Positions 15,057-41,603 of a stretch of DNA of 64,000 nt are shown piece by piece; positions within the stretch are counted from its first letter, which is position 1; each line of letters begins with the position of its first letter. The stretch is from an uncultured Spirochaetia bacterium (GTDB taxonomy: Bacteria > Desulfobacterota_D > UBA1144 > Nemesobacterales > UBA2774). The translations under genes and the position numbers were made by a program. The notes below the pieces were generated by a model that saw nothing but the letters and a program-made list of their open reading frames with translations, searched no databases and was not told the DNA's origin. Location: positions 2,673-66,672 of the forward strand of contig CAZUDM010000003.1 of NCBI GenBank assembly GCA_964618635.1, read 5' to 3'.

Positions 15057-17027
15057 TCAAATTGTCGCAAGTATGTTTCCCCACTTATCGACTTCGCACC
15101 TGAATCCCGGCGCGACATACAGCGTGGACGTATCCTCGAAGACTATCGCCGGGCCCCGGAACCTGAACCCGGGATAAAAATCCTCCCTCACGTAAGCCAT
15201 TGCCTTCGTCTCCCGTCCGTCGATTATCACGCTTTCTCTCGAAGCCCGGACGGTCTTTTTACCGGCATCGAGCAGAGGGAGCGCAAGCTTTTTCTTCCTC
15301 CGTATCGCTCTTAATCTGAGCGTTACGACCTCCACCTCGTCCCCCGGCATCGAGTATCCGTAGAGCTGCTTATGGGTCTCGTTGAAGCGCCTTACGAAAT
15401 TCTTTCCGTAAGGAATCGTGATTTCGTGGGCCTGCCTCTTGTAGCGCGCATCCACGTATCTTTCGTATCTCACACCGTCTTTCCCGAAATCGGCGCTCGA
15501 TTTTTTTACGAGCGCTTCGAATCCACGCTCTATCTCGCCTGCTGCCGTCTTGCCAGCCGACGCGAACACTGTAGCGCTATAGTCCTTGAACGTATCCGCC
15601 ATCAGCATCCCGAGTGCCGACAGCACGCCCGGCTCCCTCGGGAATATGACTGTCTTTATCTCCATCCCCCGCGCGAGCTCGCAGGCGTGAAGGCCGCCTG
15701 CCCCGCCGAAAGAGAGGAGAGCGAATTCGCGAGGATCGTATCCCTTGCCTATGGATATCACCCTGAGAGCCCTCTCCATGTTCGAATTGGCGACCCTGAT
15801 TATTCCCTCGGCGAGCTCCTCGACGGTGACGCCGAGCTTTCGGGAGAGCTTCCCGAGAGCCGAGACCGACTTCTCCGGGTATATCTTCATCCGTCCCCCG
15901 AGGAACCTTTCCGGGTCGATTCTCCTGAGGGTGACGTTCGCGTCCGTAACCGTCGGCACGGTTCCCCTTCCGTAACACGCAGGCCCCGGATCGGCCCCTG
16001 CGCTCTCGGGGCCGACTTTGAGCGCTCCGCCCGTGTCTATATATGCTATGGAACCGCCGCCCGCTCCTATGGTCGTCACGTCTATCATCGGCACCTTGAG
16101 CGGTATGCCGTCTATATTCGTCTCCGTCGTGAATTTCGGCCCGCCGTCGCAGAGGGCGACGTCCGTCGACGTGCCGCCCATGTCGTATGTGAGCACCTTC
16201 TCGTAACCGGCCGCGCTCGCTACGGCGTACGCACCGACGACACCGCCGGCAGGCCCCGAGAGGACTATGCGCACAGGTTCGCTCCCTGCTTCATCAGGAG
16301 ATATGACGCCCCCGCTCGACTGCATTATCGCTATCCGGTCGCCTCCTCCGTTCCGGGACGAAATATTCTCCGAAAGCGATCTCATGTACGAGCATACCTT
16401 CGGGACGAGATAGGAATTCGCTACGACGGTGGAAGTCCTCTCGTACTCCCTGAACTCGGGAAGAATTCTGGATGAGACCGATACGGGCACGCCGAGCGGT
16501 TCGAGAAAAGCAGCGACCTTCTCTTCGTTTACAGGATTTTTGTAGGAATGTAAAAAGGAAATCGCGACGCCCTCGGGCTTCAGTTTTTTGAGCCGCCCGA
16601 GGACTCTTTTCAAATCGGCGGCGGCTACCTTCCTGAGCACATTCCCTTCGAACGACACCCTCTCCGGGACCCCGAGCCGCATGTCCCTTGCGACCAGAGG
16701 ACGCGGTGCCTCCCAGAAGATATCGTAGAGGCTCCCCCTGTTCTGTCTCCCTATTTCTATCACATCCTCGAAGCCCTCGGTCGTAACGAGCGCGACCCTG
16801 GCCCCTTTCCTTTCGAGAAGGGCGTTCGTGGCGACTGTCGTGCCGTGGACGATTTCGACGTCACGGAATTTGTCCCCGAGAACGTGCGCCAGTCCCGATA
16901 TTATCGATCTCGAAGGGTCGTTCGGGGTCGAGGGGATTTTATAGGAGTAAAGCCTCTTGCCGTCGTAGAAAACGAAGTCGGTGAACGTGCCCCCGGTGTC
17001 TATACCGGCCCGAATCATTCTCCGCAC
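15057..17027 (-). CDS. hydantoinase/oxoprolinase A-family ATPase (HyuA-like, ASKHA fold), orphan with no B subunit in the window
   Basis: 656 aa starting GIDTGGTFTDFV. The domain order is Hydant_A_N followed by Hydantoinase_A. Confidence 0.8.
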   Translation of the reverse strand: MRRMIRAGIDTGGTFTDFVFYDGKRLYSYKIPSTPNDPSRSIISGLAHVLGDKFRDVEIVHGTTVATNALLERKGARVALVTTEGFEDVIEIGRQNRGSLYDIFWEAPRPLVARDMRLGVPERVSFEGNVLRKVAAADLKRVLGRLKKLKPEGVAISFLHSYKNPVNEEKVAAFLEPLGVPVSVSSRILPEFREYERTSTVVANSYLVPKVCSYMRSLSENISSRNGGGDRIAIMQSSGGVISPDEAGSEPVRIVLSGPAGGVVGAYAVASAAGYEKVLTYDMGGTSTDVALCDGGPKFTTETNIDGIPLKVPMIDVTTIGAGGGSIAYIDTGGALKVGPESAGADPGPACYGRGTVPTVTDANVTLRRIDPERFLGGRMKIYPEKSVSALGKLSRKLGVTVEELAEGIIRVANSNMERALRVISIGKGYDPREFALLSFGGAGGLHACELARGMEIKTVIFPREPGVLSALGMLMADTFKDYSATVFASAGKTAAGEIERGFEALVKKSSADFGKDGVRYERYVDARYKRQAHEITIPYGKNFVRRFNETHKQLYGYSMPGDEVEVVTLRLRAIRRKKKLALPLLDAGKKTVRASRESVIIDGRETKAMAYVREDFYPGFRFRGPAIVFEDTSTLYVAPGFRCEVDKWGNILATI

Positions 17028-17143
17028 ACCCTTTCCGAGAATATATCCGGCTGCATGGCACGTAAATCCGCTTTAAAGCCACCCGGAGCGCGCTACATAG
17101 CAGCCGCCCGGCGGCCCGGAATAAATAATGGATGGAATTAAGT

Positions 17144-17353
17144 CTAGTACTCGTCCTGACCTACGGGATAAACGACCTTGACCTTATCTTCGGCTATTTC
17201 CCTTAAAGCGGTCACGACGTCCTTGTTGTCGGTCTCTTCCGAAAGCGGGGCGGCTCCCTTGACGAGCAGCCTGGCCCTCTTCATCGCGGCGACCGAGAGC
17301 GCAAACCTGTTTACCACTTTTTCAAGGCAATCTTCTATAGTTACCCTTGCCAT
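17144..17353 (-). CDS. rpoZ: DNA-directed RNA polymerase subunit omega
   Basis: 69 aa starting [30 protein letters not shown], the conserved RpoZ N-terminus. Confidence 0.8.
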
Positions 17354-17490
17354 ATATTCGCCCCCTTGTTATAAAAACCGGTTCAGGCTTATAAATATAA
17401 GGGATGAAGACGCTTATGTAAAGCCGAGCGCCCCGGCACTCGGAAAGTGACTCCCGTTTGGTTAATATTATGGTTTCCGGAGGAAACGAC

Positions 17491-18165
17491 ATGGACCTGG
17501 ATCAGGTTAAGTACGACGAAAAGGGACTGGCTGCGGTTATAGTGCAGGACTTTCAGAACGGGCAGGTGCTGATGTTCGCATACGCCAACAGGGAGGCTCT
17601 CGAAAAGACGATCGAAACCGGGAAAGCGCATTTCTGGAGCAGGTCCCGGGGGCGGCTCTGGATGAAGGGTGAGGAATCCGGGAACGTTCAGGATGTTAAG
17701 GAAATCTATTTCGACTGCGACAGGGACGCCGTGCTCTTGCTCGTGGACCAGAAAGGAGTCGCCTGCCACACAGGGCAGAGGACATGCTTTTTCACGCCTT
17801 ATGGCGGCGCCGAGCGCACGTCCCCGGCCTTCGGCTCAGGCACAGGCGCGGAAGGTAAAACCCTCCGCGACGTATGGAACGTCGTCGACGACAGGAGGCG
17901 AAACCCGCGCGAGGGTTCTTACGTGAGCGGGCTCTTCGAAAAGGGACTCGACAAAATACTGAAGAAGATCACCGAGGAGGCCGGCGAAGTAGTAATAGCA
18001 GCCAAGAACGAAAGCCGGAAAGAGGTCGTATACGAAACGGCAGACCTCTGGTTCCATTCCCTCATCGCGCTTTCATATTTCGGCATAACGCCGGAGGATA
18101 TATTCGAGGAGCTCGGGAGGCGGTTCGGCAAGCCGAGCGAGGCGTACAGGAACCAGGGCGGGTGA
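17491..18165 (+). CDS. hisI: bifunctional phosphoribosyl-AMP cyclohydrolase / phosphoribosyl-ATP pyrophosphatase
   Basis: The HisI part has GLAAVIVQD ... [19 protein letters not shown] ... DCDRD. The HisE part has [13 protein letters not shown] ... ETADLWFH. I chose the ATG at 17491 because of the GGAGG 8 nt upstream. The track ORF starts at 17458. Confidence 0.85.
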
Positions 18166-18243
18166 TCGCGCTGCTTTAACGAGCAGTGCTGAATCGGCGG
18201 ACTCCCGCTCAGGTGCGGGAGCCCCCGAGGATTTGCAGTTTAA

Positions 18244-18729
18244 TCAGCGGTTCTTCTTCGGCCTGTCCTTCTCTTCTATATACTCGCCGAGAAAAGTCCT
18301 GTTCCTGACAGACGGCGGCAGGTTCCCGAGGTCGGGCTTCGGCATGTCCGTCGAGAGATCGCTCGTAAAAGCGAAGCTCGAAACCACCTTTTCCACCTTC
18401 TTTGTCTTGCAGAACGGGCAGGTGACCTTCTTCTCGTCTTCCTCGACGTATATAAGCTCCGAGAAGCGGTAGTTTTTCGGCAGGTTCACGAAAACGAGTA
18501 TCGACCCGTCGTTAAGGTAAAAGTTCAGATCGACGGCGTTCTTGTCCCTCTTTCCGGCCTCGCCCAGCACCTTTTCGTTATCGAGATCGAGCACGCCGAT
18601 GTGGTTTATGTTGTCGTATTTTTTAACGAGGTCGGACACCAGCTTCTTCGTAGCCTTCTTCTGGATTTCCTTCAAGGAATCCTCGACGTTCTTCCTGCAC
18701 GGTATGCATTCGTATTCAAAAAGCGGCAT
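18244..18729 (-). CDS. FmdB-family-like zinc-ribbon protein with a roughly 100-aa insertion between the two CxxC knuckles (paralog 1)
   Basis: The N-terminus MPLFEYECIPC and the C-terminal block CPFCKTKKVEKVVSSFAF match the two halves of the FmdB/CxxC_CxxC_SSSS zinc ribbon. GGGGGT lies 5 nt upstream of the ATG. Confidence 0.6.
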   Translation of the reverse strand: MPLFEYECIPCRKNVEDSLKEIQKKATKKLVSDLVKKYDNINHIGVLDLDNEKVLGEAGKRDKNAVDLNFYLNDGSILVFVNLPKNYRFSELIYVEEDEKKVTCPFCKTKKVEKVVSSFAFTSDLSTDMPKPDLGNLPPSVRNRTFLGEYIEEKDRPKKNR

Positions 18730-18753
18730 TTCTACCCCCTGTCTATAATGGTA

Positions 18754-19257
18754 TTACCTGTTGAAATACTGGTTTAGGTGCTCCTGACCGACCCAGTCGT
18801 TCTTCATTTCCTCGTCCTTCTGCTGCTTATACTCGAGGTGCCACCTTAGCTCGTCCTTCGGCCCGGGAGCCCTCTTGCTCTTATCGTCGAATATGGCCTT
18901 GAACGTCGAGAAAACCCGCGTCACGTCCTTGTCTCCGCAGAGCGGGCACTTGAGGTCCTTCTCGTCGCCCGGGTCGTATATAAGGTGGCTGAACCTGAAG
19001 TTCTTGAGCTCGAGAAAGAGCACCTTGTTCTTTTCGAGCTTGAAGCGAAAACGCCTCGGCCCCCTCGAGTTCGACTTCTCGCCGAGCGCAAAAATCTCCT
19101 TCCCCGTCTCGGCGTCCGTGACCTCTATATAAAGAAATCCCGGATTTTCCTTCATTATCCTGGCCGCGTTGGTCTTATTCAGCTTCGGCACAAGGGCGTC
19201 TATGTCGCTGTTATACTTGTTGTAGCACTTATCGCACTCGTATTCGAAAAGAGGCAT
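18754..19257 (-). CDS. FmdB-family-like zinc-ribbon protein with a roughly 100-aa insertion (paralog 2)
   Basis: MPLFEYECDKC ... CPLCGDKDVTRVFSTF. It is colinear with paralog 1, including the shared motif NxRFSxLIY. I set the start at the internal ATG at 19257, which is preceded by AGGAGAG. It sits 24 nt upstream of paralog 1. Confidence 0.6.
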   Translation of the reverse strand: MPLFEYECDKCYNKYNSDIDALVPKLNKTNAARIMKENPGFLYIEVTDAETGKEIFALGEKSNSRGPRRFRFKLEKNKVLFLELKNFRFSHLIYDPGDEKDLKCPLCGDKDVTRVFSTFKAIFDDKSKRAPGPKDELRWHLEYKQQKDEEMKNDWVGQEHLNQYFNR

Positions 19258-19409
19258 GGCGTCACTCTCCTGGCTTAATAAACTACTAAAGATAACCAAT
19301 ATTTCCGGAATGCTCCAGTTAAGGAACCGGTCCGGGAGCCTTATTTGACAAAGCCTTCGCTCCAGACGATTATTTTTCCGACCTTATTTATTATAATACG
19401 GGAATCCAT

Positions 19410-20201
19410 ATGACCGAAACCCGGGAGCTCCTCGTAAACGAAAGCGGGGCCGTCTGCACGCTCACCATCAACACTCCGGAAAAGAGAAACGTCGTCACGC
19501 CGTCCATGCTGCTCCGGCTGGAAGAAACTTTCGGAAGGCTTACAGAAGAGGACAGGATAAGATGCGTCGTCATGCGCGGCGCGGGGGGAAGCGCCTTTTC
19601 CTCGGGCTACGACATAACAGCCATCCGCGAAGACGACATGATACGGAACTTCGAGGGCGACAGCCCCCTCCCGAGGGCCATTCACGCTATCGAGTCCTTC
19701 CCCTACCCTGTCATAGCGATGATAAACGGGCACGCCTTCGGCGCGGGGCTCGAAATCGCCGCCACCTGCGATATAAGAATATCCGTCGACAGCTGCCTTT
19801 TCGGAATGCCCCCCGCAAAGCTAGGCGTCGTCTATTCCTACAGGGGCGTCAGGAGATTCCTGAATCTCATAGGCCCCGGGTTCACAAAAGAACTGTTTCT
19901 CACTGGAAGGCCGGTAAAGCCGGAAAGGGCGGCTGCGATGGGCCTCGTCAATTTCGTAGTCAAGCCTGAGGAGCTCGAAGAATTCACCTACGGCCTCGCC
20001 GAGGAGATAGCCGCCAACGCCCCCCTTTCCATGAAGGCGATGAAGGAGATGACGAACGTCTGGCAGAGGAGCCTCGTCATGAGCCCCGAAGACGAGGCCC
20101 TTCTTAAGGAGCTGACTCTCGGCGTGCAGCAGAGCGCCGACTACAAGGAAGGCCAGAAGGCTTTCGCCGAGAAGAGAAAGCCCGTTTTCAAAGGCAAATA
20201 A
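19410..20201 (+). CDS. enoyl-CoA hydratase/isomerase family protein (crotonase fold)
   Basis: 263 aa with the crotonase oxyanion and active-site blocks (VVMRGAGGSAFSSGYDI, AMINGHAFGAGLEIAATCDIR). Confidence 0.85.
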   Translation: MTETRELLVNESGAVCTLTINTPEKRNVVTPSMLLRLEETFGRLTEEDRIRCVVMRGAGGSAFSSGYDITAIREDDMIRNFEGDSPLPRAIHAIESFPYPVIAMINGHAFGAGLEIAATCDIRISVDSCLFGMPPAKLGVVYSYRGVRRFLNLIGPGFTKELFLTGRPVKPERAAAMGLVNFVVKPEELEEFTYGLAEEIAANAPLSMKAMKEMTNVWQRSLVMSPEDEALLKELTLGVQQSADYKEGQKAFAEKRKPVFKGK

Positions 20202-20211
20202 AGTCTTTTTT

Positions 20212-21681
20212 TCACTTTCGCTTTTTTCTCAGCCTGAATAAATCCAGCCTGTGATAGCGGCTCTCGGATATGAAATCGTATTCCGGTGTAAGACCGGCTT
20301 TCGTATTCAGCCTGCTCGCGGGATGGGCCTGCATGACGAGCCATACGTCGTGCGTCAGCATGCCCGGATAAGACGGGAACCTGTCCTTTACCGGGACGAG
20401 CTCGAGGTCGCCCCTTTCGAGATAATATCCCGCCGTGACGGCCTCGAAGTGCGGAAAAACGAGGACGTAATCTCCGCTTCCGGCATTCGACTCTATCTCC
20501 CTTATGGCTTCCCGCCACTGGTTTTTCTCGACTCCGCCATAATACGAATAAAGAGGCGGCGCGGAGAGAATCACGACGGCGGCCATCACGGCGCAGGCTG
20601 CAAACCTGTTATTGACGGCGCTCATTCCTGCGGCGGCCAGGAGATATAGCCCGAGGGAAGCGATTATCGTATACCGGAACACAATAACCGGGGCGAGAAT
20701 AAGGGAAATTAAAAACGGCGCCAGGAGCGGAACCAGAAGCCAGAGGAGAAGAAAATAAATCTTCTCCCCGTAAGTGATCTTAACCCCCGCGGATTCGTCC
20801 GCCGCGGTGAGGAGCCCCTTAAAGCCCTTCACGCCTCGGAGCCTTTCCGAATTCGCGACTGCAAGCATGGCGAATGCCGCGAGCAGCGCGAGCACGTAAA
20901 CAGAGCCTGCATATATGACGAGATAGAGGAGCAAATCCCCCGATCCCGGCTCGGGTATCCAGAACGACTCCCTTACAGACGTGAACCTTCCCGCGAGGAG
21001 AATAAACCCGGGGACGTAAAGAGCTCCCAATACAACCTGAACGAGTATCCAGCGCGTAAGCTCGGGCGCGCCGGCGCGGCCCCGCCTGAAGAATATTGTG
21101 AAGCAAAATATATTCTGTGCCAGAACAGTGAACAGGCCGAAATAATGCGTATAACAGAGAAGGGCGCTCGACAGGACGTAAACAGCCGCCCAGCGCCTGC
21201 TCCACACCGAAATCATCCGAAGGAGCGCATAACCCGAGACGAGCGCCAGGAAAACCATCAGGGTGTATCCCCTCGCTTCCTGTGAGTACCTCACGTGAAA
21301 GAAAGAGACGGCGATTACAAGCGCCGCGAAGAGACCGGCTCTTTTACCGAAAAGAATCCTGCCGACGGAATACGTGAGAATAATCGAAAGGACGCCAAAT
21401 ATCGCCGAGGGCAGCCTCGATACAAATTCCGAATCCCCGAAGACGGGTATCCACAGATGGAGCAGCATGTAATAAAACGGGGGATTCCCTTCCTTACTCT
21501 GATTGGCTACCCATTTTATCTGCTCTATAAACCCGAGCCTGGATACGTCGATAGATACCGCTTCGTCGAACCAGACGCTCTCGCCGCCGAGGTCGTATAT
21601 CCTGAGCGCGAGCCCGGCAAGCACGATGAGAAGAAGGAGATAATTCTCTTTCAGAGTGTCGAGGAGCCTTCCTTCGGTCAT
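20212..21681 (-). CDS. GT-C glycosyltransferase, PMT_2 / ArnT-like (GT39/GT83), paralog 1
   Basis: A polytopic membrane protein. The first loop has LRIYDL...SVWFDEA with the catalytic DE, typical of PMT_2. A soluble periplasmic domain of about 130 aa is at the C-terminus. Confidence 0.8.
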   Translation of the reverse strand: MTEGRLLDTLKENYLLLLIVLAGLALRIYDLGGESVWFDEAVSIDVSRLGFIEQIKWVANQSKEGNPPFYYMLLHLWIPVFGDSEFVSRLPSAIFGVLSIILTYSVGRILFGKRAGLFAALVIAVSFFHVRYSQEARGYTLMVFLALVSGYALLRMISVWSRRWAAVYVLSSALLCYTHYFGLFTVLAQNIFCFTIFFRRGRAGAPELTRWILVQVVLGALYVPGFILLAGRFTSVRESFWIPEPGSGDLLLYLVIYAGSVYVLALLAAFAMLAVANSERLRGVKGFKGLLTAADESAGVKITYGEKIYFLLLWLLVPLLAPFLISLILAPVIVFRYTIIASLGLYLLAAAGMSAVNNRFAACAVMAAVVILSAPPLYSYYGGVEKNQWREAIREIESNAGSGDYVLVFPHFEAVTAGYYLERGDLELVPVKDRFPSYPGMLTHDVWLVMQAHPASRLNTKAGLTPEYDFISESRYHRLDLFRLRKKRK

Positions 21682-21706
21682 CTTACGCTTGCGCCGCGGA
21701 GTATGT

Positions 21707-22603
21707 TCAGCTGCCGTAGCCGAAATCCCTTATGAGGTTTTCCCTGTCGGTCCAGTTCTCGCTCACCTTCACCCATAGCTCTAAAAAGACCTTCGAGCCG
21801 AGGACCCTCTCTATATCCGCCCTCGCCTGGCTCCCTATCTCCTTCAGCATTTCACCGCCCTTCCCGATGATAATCCCCTTGTGGTTACTCCTCTCGACGT
21901 ATATCACGGCGGAAATGCGTATAAGCTGTTTTTCGGGAACCTCTTCGAACTCCTCTATCGAAACCGCGATTTTATAGGGTATCTCCTGGTGCGTGAGGTT
22001 GAATATCTTCTCCCTTATGAACTCCGCCGCGAGGAACCTCTCCGGCTGGTCCGTAATCATGTCGTCGGGGAAATACTTCGGCCCCGGCGGCAGGTGGTTT
22101 CTTATGGCCGCCAGGAGCTCCGGAATCCCGTCGGCCATGGCGGCGGAAATGGGGATGATTTCGAGAAATTTGTCCTGGTACTTCCGCGACTGGTCTATTA
22201 TTTTCAGAATTTCGCCCTTTTTTATCTTGTCGATTTTATTTATGAGAAGTATCGCCGGTTTCGGCAGGCTCTCGATTATGAAGGTGTCTCCCTTCCCGAA
22301 GGGCTCGTTCACCTCGACCACCATCAGTATCACGTCGGCTTCCCTGACGGCGGACATAGCCGCCTGGACCATCACCTTTCCGAGCTTCCCCCTCGCCTTG
22401 TGTATGCCGGGCGTATCGAGGAATATGAGCTGGGCGTCGGGCAGGTTTCTTATGCCCAGAATCCTGTTCCGCGTGGTGTTCGGCTTGTCGGAGACGGCGG
22501 CGATCTTCTCGCCGACGACGGCGTTCACGAGCGTCGACTTCCCGACGTTCGGCCTTCCGACAACCGATATGAATCCCGAGCGGAAATCCTTTTCCTCATT
22601 CAT
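21707..22603 (-). CDS. era: GTPase Era
   Basis: G1 GRPNVGKST, G3 DTPG, G4 NKID. A C-terminal KH domain follows (IIGKGGEMLKEIG). Confidence 0.9.
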   Translation of the reverse strand: MNEEKDFRSGFISVVGRPNVGKSTLVNAVVGEKIAAVSDKPNTTRNRILGIRNLPDAQLIFLDTPGIHKARGKLGKVMVQAAMSAVREADVILMVVEVNEPFGKGDTFIIESLPKPAILLINKIDKIKKGEILKIIDQSRKYQDKFLEIIPISAAMADGIPELLAAIRNHLPPGPKYFPDDMITDQPERFLAAEFIREKIFNLTHQEIPYKIAVSIEEFEEVPEKQLIRISAVIYVERSNHKGIIIGKGGEMLKEIGSQARADIERVLGSKVFLELWVKVSENWTDRENLIRDFGYGS

Positions 22604-41362: not shown

Positions 41363-41440
41363 CTGGTCGGGGTGGCCGGACTTGAACCGGCGGCCTCTGC
41401 GTCCCGAACGCAACGCTCTAGCCAATCTGAGCTACACCCC
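41363..41440 (-). tRNA. tRNA-Pro (anticodon CGG)
   Basis: I folded the 78-nt minus-strand sequence CGGGGUGUAGCUCAGAUUGGCUAGAGCGUUGCGUUCGGGACGCAGAGGCCGCCGGUUCAAGUCCGGCCACCCCGACCA into a cloverleaf by hand. It has a 7-bp acceptor stem with C1:G72, U8, the D arm GCUC/GAGC with G18 G19, an anticodon loop UUCGGGA (U33, CGG, G37), a 5-nt variable loop, the T loop UUCAAGU, discriminator A73 and an encoded CCA. Confidence 0.85.
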
Positions 41441-41603
41441 GACGAGGCTAATAAATTTACAATATTCCGTCTGGTATTCAAGTAATCGAACGCAAAAAAT
41501 GAACGCCGGGTTAATATTCGCCAGGAGAGCCGCCTTATCGGCCGTCCCCACTGAATAACGATGCTTTTTTCGAATATAATTCTCGGAGGGAGTATCAAAT
41601 CCA

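Follow-up and report, generated by a model that had tools for sequence, protein, structure and literature searches.

A tandem pair of FmdB-type zinc ribbons interrupted by a folded domain in Candidatus Dadabacteria

Introduction

Zinc ribbons of the FmdB type (Zn_ribbon_8, PF09723; CxxC_CxxC_SSSS, TIGR02605) are widespread, yet we found no experimentally established function for the family in the literature. FmdB proteins start with MP(L/I)(Y/F)E(Y/F)xC..C, in which the first CxxC occupies residues 8–11, and continue with a second strand of the form (F/Y)xEL and the second Cys pair, after which comes VxRxxS(S/T)F. Within a window of 64,000 nucleotides, the whole stretch of DNA analysed here, two neighbouring genes designated A and B encode proteins sharing all of these features. 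The two proteins differ from the described FmdB proteins in carrying 74 extra residues after the first knuckle and before the second strand, with the Cys pairs 92 instead of 18 residues apart, and in always being encoded as a tandem pair. Their tails are highly conserved and paralog-specific, whereas FmdB tails are degenerate and rich in Ser, Gly, and Cys. Orthologs of 85–87 residues found in the A/B slot of related genomes are ordinary members of the family.

Domain insertions are reported for about 20% of multidomain proteins (PMC13114784). As in other domain-insertion architectures, the guest in A and B interrupts its host at a surface hairpin, and the two ends of the guest are therefore adjacent. 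Unlike in those architectures, the host comprises only about 40 residues, is among the smallest known folds, and is smaller than its guest; moreover, there are natural lineages of Dadabacteria from which the guest appears to have been removed.

Results

Two ORFs lie in tandem on the minus strand, exactly at the coordinates given by a first-pass annotation of this DNA, which had described them as paralogs spaced by 24 nt, each preceded by a Shine-Dalgarno sequence and together convergent with hisIE. All of these features were recovered:

18754–19257, minus strand: gene A, the upstream paralog, an ORF of 167 residues encoding a split FmdB-type zinc ribbon with an A-type tail
18244–18729, minus strand: gene B, the downstream paralog, an ORF of 161 residues encoding a split FmdB-type zinc ribbon with a B-type tail
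18730–18753, minus strand: spacer of 24 nt between A and B, containing the Shine-Dalgarno sequence of B (GGGGG, 18735–18739)
19267–19271, minus strand: Shine-Dalgarno sequence of gene A (AGGAG), 9 nt before the ATG
18194–18228, no strand assigned: GC-rich hairpin of 14 bp, from RNA folding, within the 78 nt that separate B from the convergent hisIE

The proteins share 34% sequence identity (BLASTP E-value of 6e-18) and open, as annotated, with MPLFEYEC.xC, namely MPLFEYECDKC in A and MPLFEYECIPC in B. We assigned the start of A to the ATG at 19257 and not to the TTG at 19299 because all homologs begin with MP(L/V)(F/Y)EYEC. Homologs of A with 156 residues, which seem to lack the N-terminal knuckle, turned out to be miscalled starts, since their DNA encodes an intact PLYEYECDSC from a GTG that has a Shine-Dalgarno sequence. 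Each paralog is represented by approximately 170–200 protein clusters of 60–96% identity and constant length, and A and B are therefore genuine genes. They are probably co-transcribed. The hisIE gene (17458–18165) faces B, and the hairpin between them has a folding energy of −37.9 kcal/mol (z = −4.3; 0 of 200 shuffled sequences fold equally well); it is probably a bidirectional terminator without a U-tract. Scans for consensus signals reported no terminator 3′ of B, leaving this hairpin unflagged, and no promoter for A.

The first-pass annotation had also noted a lower GC content than in the neighbouring genes. Such a dip is present, but it is small and affects only codon positions 1 and 2; the GC3 values (0.79 for A and 0.77 for B) are not lowered compared with those of the neighbours (0.66–0.77). 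The dip is due to the amino-acid composition, rich in Lys, Glu, Asn, and Asp; Lys accounts for 13–14% of residues, with a net charge of only +2. A foreign origin, as hinted at by the low GC content, is refuted by GC3 matching the neighbours and by synteny fixed in 76 of 76 loci. Phage and defence origins were rejected because we found no relatives on viral contigs and nothing significant in PHROGs and PADLOC searches. It is extremely improbable that the tails are RiPP-like precursor peptides, that the locus is foreign or mobile DNA, or that the ORF pair is spurious. The slightly lower GC content speaks for this explanation, as does the family description of TIGR02605, which reportedly likens FmdB tails to the low-complexity tails of bacteriocin precursors. 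However, the tails of A and B are not of low complexity and are better conserved than the rest of each protein, modifying enzymes are absent nearby, GC3 is that of the host genome, and there are hundreds of conserved homologs. Together with the fixed genomic position and the empty viral-contig, PHROGs, and PADLOC searches, synteny and conservation effectively refute it.

The ribbon of each protein is divided into two halves, which enclose the inserted domain and are followed by the tail:

19219–19257, minus strand: N-terminal half of the A ribbon, residues 1–13, with strand 1 and the first knuckle (C8/C11), matching positions 1–14 of PF09723/TIGR02605
18997–19218, minus strand: inserted alpha/beta domain of A, residues 14–87
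18895–18996, minus strand: C-terminal half of the A ribbon, residues 88–121, with the RFSHLIY strand, DEK linker, CPLC knuckle, and VTRVFSTF, from model positions 14–41 and the unsplit orthologs
18757–18894, minus strand: A-type tail, residues 122–167, KRAPGPxDELRWHLEYKQQKDEE...WVGQEHLNQYFNR, the most conserved region of A
18691–18729, minus strand: N-terminal half of the B ribbon, residues 1–13, with C8/C11, from the model match and ortholog alignment
18469–18690, minus strand: inserted alpha/beta domain of B, residues 14–87
18367–18468, minus strand: C-terminal half of the B ribbon, residues 88–121, with RFSELIY, DEK, CPFC, and VEKVVSSFAF, from PF09723 positions 14–41 and the unsplit orthologs
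18247–18366, minus strand: B-type tail, residues 122–161, DLSTDMPKPDLxNLPP...YIEEKDRPKKNR, the most conserved region of B

PF09723 and TIGR02605 match both proteins in two stretches (model positions 1–14 and 14–41/49, E-values of 1e-7 to 1e-9), covering residues 1–13 and 88–116/122, which confirms that the two segments are the knuckles of an FmdB ribbon with the trailing S.FAF. With TIGR02605, B scores above (38.0 bits) and A below (30.2 bits) the cut-off of 31.3, and the PF09723 scores of 31.6 and 29.9 both stay below its cut-off of 34.4; precomputed PF09723.16 matches are listed for most homologs of A and B. The DUF1178 model (PF06676, 147 positions) reached at best 16.7 bits, below its gathering cut-off of 31.6, and only in the second-knuckle region (residues 98–125). 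The second Cys pair is found at residues 104–107 (CPLCGDKDVTRVFSTF in A and CPFCKTKKVEKVVSSF in B), 96 residues past the first CxxC and not about 110 residues on, as first proposed. Between C11 and C104 there are 92 residues, compared with 18 in the unsplit orthologs and approximately 17–18 in contiguous family members. C8 and C11 are kept in all correctly called homologs, and the four Cys positions are retained as a set throughout the clade, with the spacing of the second pair drifting (CxxC, CxC, CxCC, CPCxxxC) at a constant number of ligands. The ribbon halves have high pLDDT values in the predicted structure. We infer that the four cysteines would bind one structural zinc, thereby tying both ends of the insert together.

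A and B share descent with bona fide contiguous FmdB members, as their 85–87-residue orthologs occupy the identical slot and carry the same tails. The architecture is a ribbon of the FmdB type that a folded domain breaks in two, in both of the tandem paralogs. The suspicion that this split ribbon is an undescribed architecture held up; sequence searches of Pfam, NCBIfam, PHROGs, PADLOC, and the PDB returned no family covering the insert.

The borders of the insert could be set precisely because relatives carry contiguous ribbons of 85–87 residues in the same genomic slot. The alignment with these orthologs leaves a clean gap of 74 columns, corresponding to a net insertion of 74 residues (14–87) directly after the first Cys knuckle and before the second strand of the ribbon, shorter than the 95–100 residues estimated initially. 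The NxRFSxLIY..DEK segment, originally cited as conservation within the insert, belongs to the second strand and linker of the ribbon (model positions 14–29) and is also present in the unsplit orthologs. The insert is predicted to fold into two helices followed by a meander of four beta-strands, which continues into the second ribbon strand. With its helices it is predicted as an alpha/beta domain, not simply the beta-rich one described at first. The AF2 models have a mean pLDDT of 83 for B, with 93–97 in the core, and of 66 for A.

Even though the inserts of A and B are only 17% identical, their profiles align in register (hhalign E-value of 3.8e-6), and by this profile comparison they are distant homologs. 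Orthologous inserts are about 60% identical over the whole radiation. Conserved polar residues are sparse, K28 and G59 alone being common to A and B. An origin by internal duplication of a ribbon strand (RRFRFKL resembling NFRFSHL) was rejected with an hhalign probability of at most 1%.

Pfam and NCBIfam scans of both proteins and of 148 aligned members (76 + 72, E ≤ 1) detected zinc-ribbon families only, and no PAS or Cache profile matched any of the 76 + 72 members at E ≤ 1. The A+B profile had no match in the PDB at E ≤ 10, and a search with a contiguous-FmdB profile returned generic knuckles alone (Tim15, RpoP; E ≥ 1.6e-4), so that no solved FmdB-family structure was detectable by sequence in the PDB profile search. 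Nor did HMMER, run against 1.84 billion representative proteins, reveal a free-standing copy of the insert. Foldseek indicated a modest resemblance of the insert to PAS/Cache and Roadblock domains, with no match below an E-value of 1e-3. Compared with PAS/Cache (PDC-type) sensors such as CqsR (9nia), TlpC (5wbf), and KinD (4jgo), the insert has no sequence similarity, is smaller, lacks the helices lining the ligand pocket, and is cytoplasmic, residing inside a zinc ribbon without flanking transmembrane helices. Roadblock/LC7 proteins (MglB, LAMTOR) have the order alpha-beta-beta-alpha-beta-beta-beta, as opposed to alpha-alpha-beta5 in the insert; there was no Pfam signal of Robl_LC7, and the operon does not encode a partner GTPase.

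Conservation is lowest in the insert of both proteins, with mean pairwise identities of 0.56–0.60 compared with 0.82 for the B tail and 0.77 for the A tail. Residues H140, Y143, K144, W155, G157, L161, Q163, Y164, and F165 are invariant in the A tail, and the B tail is nearly unchanged in the unsplit 87-residue orthologs. The two tails show no detectable similarity to each other (hhalign) and no match outside the clade among the 1.84 billion representative proteins (HMMER); both have low pLDDT values with each protein modelled alone. The C-terminus of A resembles a PIP-box, or clamp-binding motif (QEHLNQYF, cf. Qxx(L)xx(Y)(F)), a candidate that we dropped because relatives have Y, A, P, or M in place of the leading Q. 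Every lineage has kept the ribbon and the tail, and one derived group lacks the insert, either in B alone or in both genes. We infer that the ribbon and the tail constitute the working core and that the insert is accessory.

The pair was found in Candidatus Dadabacteria only, always in the order A then B and convergent with hisIE (76 of 76 loci). Scanning metagenomes with a tail-only profile provided 80 classifiable loci, in which both genes are split (61 loci), only A is split (14), or neither is split (5), with no locus in which only B is split. An earlier scan of a genome collection had retrieved just 7 loci, swamped by the generic MPxYEYEC pattern. A is directly upstream of B in every locus, with a gap of 8–28 nt in split loci and 60–105 nt where neither gene is split. 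Split and contiguous forms share the same slot (Era, enoyl-CoA hydratase, A, B, convergent hisIE, rpoZ, hydantoinase), and are therefore orthologs; the contiguous forms are canonical ribbons of 85–87 residues at the orthologous position. Among the 1.84 billion representatives, ordinary FmdB proteins of 60–80 residues match positions 1–13 and 87–130 of the A+B profile with contiguous residues.

Discussion

In rooted trees the unsplit forms occupy a derived part, a placement in favour of the insert having been lost secondarily. The E. coli outgroup rooted the trees among both-split lineages in 296 of 300 bootstraps and on neither-split lineages in 0 of 300, although these were neighbour-joining trees of two to five proteins with a very distant outgroup, in which long-branch attraction may have drawn the L001/L002 or marine lineages to the root. 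In the HisIE tree, both genes are split on every deep branch, comprising at least four deep lineages including the marine one. In this scenario, both genes would have been split in the ancestor, and clean secondary deletion of the insert would have produced the contiguous forms. The polarity could also be reversed, with an ancestral contiguous pair in which A gained the insert first and B obtained it later, when non-allelic recombination across the conserved flanks coding for the ribbon transferred it from A. All FmdB proteins outside the clade are contiguous, the series from neither through only A to both, without an only-B case, fits stepwise gain as well as stepwise loss, and the unrooted topology permits a root on the branch to the neither-split lineages. 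We nevertheless consider the reversed order unlikely, given that no bootstrap placed the outgroup root there and that the deep lineages, the marine one included, have both genes split. A recent copying of the insert from A to B would also need an extreme burst of divergence, because the inserts of A and B are 17% identical compared with about 60% within each across the radiation.

A and B are small, soluble proteins, each consisting of a four-Cys FmdB-type ribbon, a 74-residue insert, and a paralog-specific tail. The ribbon could be a stable handle in which one structural zinc clamps both ends of the insert, the insert could serve as an accessory module for oligomerisation or modulation, and the tails, from their conservation and low pLDDT, may be docking peptides for a conserved cellular partner. 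Co-occurrence and tight spacing suggest that A and B act together, probably as a heteromer. Taken as a whole, a conserved Dadabacteria pair with a zinc-clamped insert later deleted in some lineages, heteromer formation, docking tails, and an accessory insert, this model appears to us evenly poised between right and wrong.

Other functions have to be weighed against it. A and B might have nucleic acid, the ribosome, or RNA polymerase as binding partners, as do many zinc ribbons. Such a role, in line with the first-pass suggestion of a nucleic-acid-binding, ribosome-binding, or regulatory module, could coexist with the accessory-insert model. The high Lys content, the weak profile similarity of the ribbon to the RpoP/Rpo12 and eL43 ribbons, the JGI names of homologs ("RPC12/RpoP" or "nucleic acid-binding Zn ribbon"), and the presence of rpoZ and era near the pair in every locus point in this direction. 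The net charge is just +2, however; the resemblance to RpoP is one that CxxC knuckles generally show (15.5 bits against a cut-off of 84), the JGI names are automatic labels, hisIE on the strand opposite to both separates rpoZ from the pair, and the entire neighbourhood is conserved regardless of gene function, leaving such binding with a rather small chance. The insert might instead be a small cytoplasmic PAS/Cache-like ligand sensor signalling via the zinc clamp to the tail, making A and B minimal one-component signalling proteins. We find this unlikely, since the 148 family members contain no PAS or Cache sequence signal, the two helices precede an uninterrupted meander without the pocket-lining helices of Cache domains, few polar residues are conserved, with K28 and G59 alone common to both paralogs, and the insert, the least conserved region, has been deleted in some lineages with the tails unchanged. 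More specifically, A and B might form a heterodimeric, zinc-clamped mini-sensor in which the PAS/Cache-like module couples ligand binding, or the zinc or redox state, to exposure of the two different docking tails. Although improbable, such a mini-sensor would belong to a class of minimal signalling or adaptor proteins that has so far gone unrecognised, and the insert-less lineages would be its natural constitutive versions. It is very improbable that the CxxC motifs are redox-active thiol-disulfide centres instead of zinc ligands. A table in PMC9312934 lists some FmdB-family members as selenoproteins with a U/CxxU motif, suggesting redox chemistry in part of the family, but the four Cys positions of A and B are retained together across the clade, spacing drift of the second pair at constant ligand number is what a structural metal site typically shows, in contrast to a catalytic CxxC, and no thioredoxin-like fold is predicted.

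The finding explains no biological process at present. It does provide a conserved marker gene pair for Dadabacteria and a clean natural case of a guest larger than its host of about 40 residues, in which the insertion seems to have been reversed precisely, of use for studies of domain insertion and for the engineering of zinc-ribbon scaffolds. Dadabacteria offer three natural versions of the orthologous pair, with both genes split, only A split, or neither split, which, together with the conserved tails, mark the ribbon and tail as the presumably essential parts and the insert as the accessory one.

A two-gene unit of FmdB-type zinc-ribbon proteins

The region contains two tandem paralogs, genes A and B, which encode FmdB-type zinc-ribbon proteins that are split by an inserted domain and end in paralog-specific C-termini (tails; A residues 122-167, B residues 122-161).

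18754-19257, minus strand: gene A, an ORF of 167 residues
18244-18729, minus strand: gene B, an ORF of 161 residues, head to tail with A
17458-18165, plus strand: hisIE, convergent with B; its orthologs carry PRA-CH and PRA-PH domains
18194-18228: 14-bp GC-rich hairpin within the 78 nt that separate B from hisIE (18166-18243); folding energy -37.9 kcal/mol, z = -4.3

The mechanical ORF of A extends upstream to a TTG at 19299; we placed the start at the ATG at 19257 because every homolog opens with MP(L/V)(F/Y)EYEC behind a Shine-Dalgarno sequence. The 24-nt spacing, the Shine-Dalgarno sequences and the hisIE convergence described in the first-pass annotation are all present in the window: AGGAG lies 9 nt upstream of A, and the spacer between the genes includes GGGGG. 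The two products share 34% identity across 135 residues (BLASTP E 6e-18). The hairpin at 18194-18228, which lacks a U-tract, was not flagged by a consensus terminator scan and is accompanied by a second, smaller stem at 18168-18189, may act as a bidirectional transcription terminator. Rfam and ARAGORN found a single RNA gene in the 64-kb window, a tRNA-Pro (CGG) at 41364-41441 on the minus strand.

The region had been noted as lower in GC than its surroundings, and foreign DNA was among the readings weighed. GC3 is 0.79 in A and 0.77 in B, no lower than in the neighbouring genes (0.66-0.77), and the AT shift is confined to codon positions 1 and 2, as expected where Lys, Glu, Asp and Asn are abundant in the product. 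A and B are native genes.

The ribbon is interrupted by 74 residues

The split architecture proposed by the first-pass annotation is borne out by both models of the family. Pfam Zn_ribbon_8 (PF09723) and TIGR02605 each match A and B in two stretches, with model positions 1-14 falling on residues 1-14 and positions 14-41/49 on residues 88-116/122. As whole proteins, only B exceeds a cut-off, that of TIGR02605 (38.0 bits against 31.3), with A just below it (30.2 bits) and both slightly under the Pfam gathering score. When an A+B profile was searched by HMMER against 1.84 billion representative proteins, ordinary FmdB proteins of 60-80 residues were recovered after the A/B family, their contiguous residues 1-13 and 14-58 aligning with profile positions 1-13 and approximately 87-130.

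Alignment of B with 87-residue relatives produces a single clean 74-column gap (B residues 14-87), beginning after the first knuckle (C8..C11 and two further residues) and ending before the (R/Q)(F/Y)SEL strand, and A compared with its 85-residue relatives gives the same boundaries. The split in A and B is real, and the gap against unsplit relatives sets the insert at 74 residues instead of the 95-100 originally estimated. The motif NxRFSxLIY..DEK, previously read as insert conservation, belongs to the ribbon's own second strand and the linker. We also considered a ribbon-strand duplication as the source of the insert, as RRFRFKL (A residues 68-74) resembles NFRFSHL (A residues 86-92), and rejected it at a profile-profile probability of at most 1%.

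Predicted structures

AlphaFold2 with family alignments modeled B with a mean pLDDT of 83 and blocks of 93-97 across residues 11-90; the model of A is weaker (mean pLDDT 66) with an identical order of elements. The B model opens with a strand (3-8) and two helices (9-24 and 28-37), continues through four strands (43-48, 53-59, 66-72 and 77-83) to the ribbon strand (88-92), and then has a short helix (96-101) and, past the second knuckle, a strand (112-115). The tails of both proteins, from residue 119 on, are modeled with low confidence. The insert, earlier described as beta-rich, is alpha/beta in the models. Foldseek agreed on KinD and CqsR, only at E about 1e-2, and none of the 148 members scanned gave a sequence signal for PAS, Cache or Roadblock. 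We describe the insert as a predicted small alpha/beta sandwich, distantly PAS/Cache-like in look and not a member of the PAS, Cache or Roadblock families. Convergence of the four cysteines is suggested by the canonical ribbon that the same residues form in unsplit orthologs and by the high confidence of the modeled ribbon halves; a single structural zinc per protein would then clamp the base of the insert.

Distribution and genomic context

A word-indexed search of 5.8 billion proteins gave 205 clusters for B and 172 for A, with identities of 60-96% and hardly any variation in length. All named clusters derive from Candidatus Dadabacteria or Thermodesulfobacteriota MAGs, Dadabacteria being a class within Thermodesulfobacteriota in the NCBI taxonomy. 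The HMMER scan of representatives returned only 8 relatives at E < 1e-30 and 26 at E < 1e-10, the majority fragments. No relatives were found on viral contigs, and neither PHROGs nor PADLOC gave a significant match. Many database entries for A have 156 residues and seemingly lack the first knuckle (P0149, P0157, P0203, P0214 and others). Natural truncation was rejected: the DNA of one such locus (L002, 7968-8471) has a GTG start after GGAGG with PLYEYECDSC intact, so that these entries are start-codon miscalls.

Every contig examined shows the order Era, enoyl-CoA hydratase (divergent), A, B, hisIE (convergent), rpoZ and hydantoinase, and hisIE is convergent downstream of B at all 76 loci extending that far. 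The block from Era to hydantoinase A (15057-22603) keeps its order and orientation at 55-70% protein identity in loci L001-L015; its genes have unrelated functions and differ in strand. Two entries labeled otherwise by NCBI, P0249 ('Candidatus Caldarchaeum sp.') and L015 ('Ignavibacteriales bacterium', a 3.2-kb contig), carry the Dadabacteria-type A-B-hisIE arrangement, and the flanking proteins of L015 are 89% identical to those of the Dadabacteria-like L005 (p-distance 0.11). Both short contigs have probably been mis-binned.

Loss of the insert is favoured over gain

Contiguous orthologs occupy the same slot. Proteins of 87 residues with a B-type tail (P0249, P0390-P0398) lie exactly in the place of B, preceded either by an 85-residue contiguous ribbon with an A-type C-terminus (L003, L004, L007, L008 and L085) or by a split A of 167-170 residues (L005, L006 and L014). 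Our census comprised 96 loci from the window, a genome scan and a metagenome scan seeded by a tail-only profile, of which 16 are cut by contig ends. Among the 80 classifiable loci, both genes are split in 61, only A in 14, neither in five and only B in none. A lies directly upstream of B in all cases; 8-28 nt separate the two wherever A is split, whether or not B is, as against 60-105 nt at the neither-split loci. A divergent marine lineage (L091-L097, from Tara and other marine metagenome contigs) has both genes split; its proteins, A of 180 and B of 179 residues, are longer and extend further at the C-terminus, A with ...GNSQHDGSYGSE and B with ...NIKADNRYKHQYQDKSRKKIL.

Neighbour-joining on five flanking proteins (up to 1521 sites) places the neither-split and only-A-split lineages in one clade adjoining the window's own group, with the both-split L001/L002 group and L009 outside it. 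Rooting with E. coli Era and HisIE (455 ungapped columns, 300 bootstraps) placed the root on L001/L002 in 224 replicates, on L009 in 67, on both together in five, on L005 (only A split) in four and on a neither-split lineage in none. In a tree of HisIE alone (38 dereplicated loci), all deep branches, marine included, have both genes split. The A and B inserts align in register at 17% identity (hhalign probability 87%, E 3.8e-6), and orthologous inserts retain 56-60% identity throughout the radiation; by these comparisons the A and B inserts are ancient homologs. Taken together, the trees, their rooting and the insert divergence favour an ancestor in which both genes were split; one derived group would then have lost the insert by precise deletion, first in B and afterwards in A. 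This polarity is read from neighbour-joining of few genes with a very distant outgroup. The reverse course, in which the insert was gained stepwise and copied from A into B, would account for the same architectures and seems improbable given this rooting.

Conserved tails and possible function

Conservation among orthologs is highest in the tails, with mean pairwise identities of 0.82 (B) and 0.77 (A), compared with 0.62-0.76 for the ribbon halves and 0.56-0.60 for the inserts, which are dispensable in some lineages. The first knuckle is CxxC in all relatives. In the window the second (Cys pair at 104-107) reads CPxC; many B orthologs (e.g., P0116, P0117 and P0120) have CxCG, and the marine L091 and L096 have CxCC in B and CPCxxxC in A. 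Across relatives it appears as CxxC, CxC, CxCC or CPCxxxC, always with at least two cysteines. Such variability is more in keeping with a structural metal site than with the catalytic CxxC of a redox protein. A ligand sensor and a RiPP precursor were also weighed, as was a nucleic-acid or ribosome binder; of the first-pass interpretation the architecture stands, and the functional guess, like the GC hint, is unsupported. We favour a reading in which A and B act together, as their constant co-occurrence, tight spacing and fixed order of insert loss suggest, with the tails as putative docking peptides for a conserved partner and the insert as a possible accessory module for oligomerisation or modulation.

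The searchable literature holds no experimentally defined FmdB-family function and nothing found linking Dadabacteria to zinc ribbons; some FmdB-family members are noted as selenoproteins in a published table (PMC9312934). The pair is a new form of a known family: its FmdB ribbon hosts a guest domain and bears conserved tails, and it is confined to a single class of uncultured bacteria. The pair explains no biological process at present; it is of moderate interest for protein evolution and offers a handle on this uncharacterised family.

Ordinary FmdB proteins have degenerate tails with a high content of Ser, Gly and Cys, whereas those of A and B are highly conserved, share no detectable similarity with each other and resemble nothing else among the 1.84 billion representatives. 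The B tail, DLST(D/N)MPKPDLxxLPP...YIEEKDRPKxNR, is essentially constant with or without either insert. The A terminus WVGxxxL(N/D)QYF is likewise retained everywhere, and the preceding segment RAPxPGDxxxWHxEYKxxKDEE is present only if A has its insert, which hints that this segment may pack on the insert.
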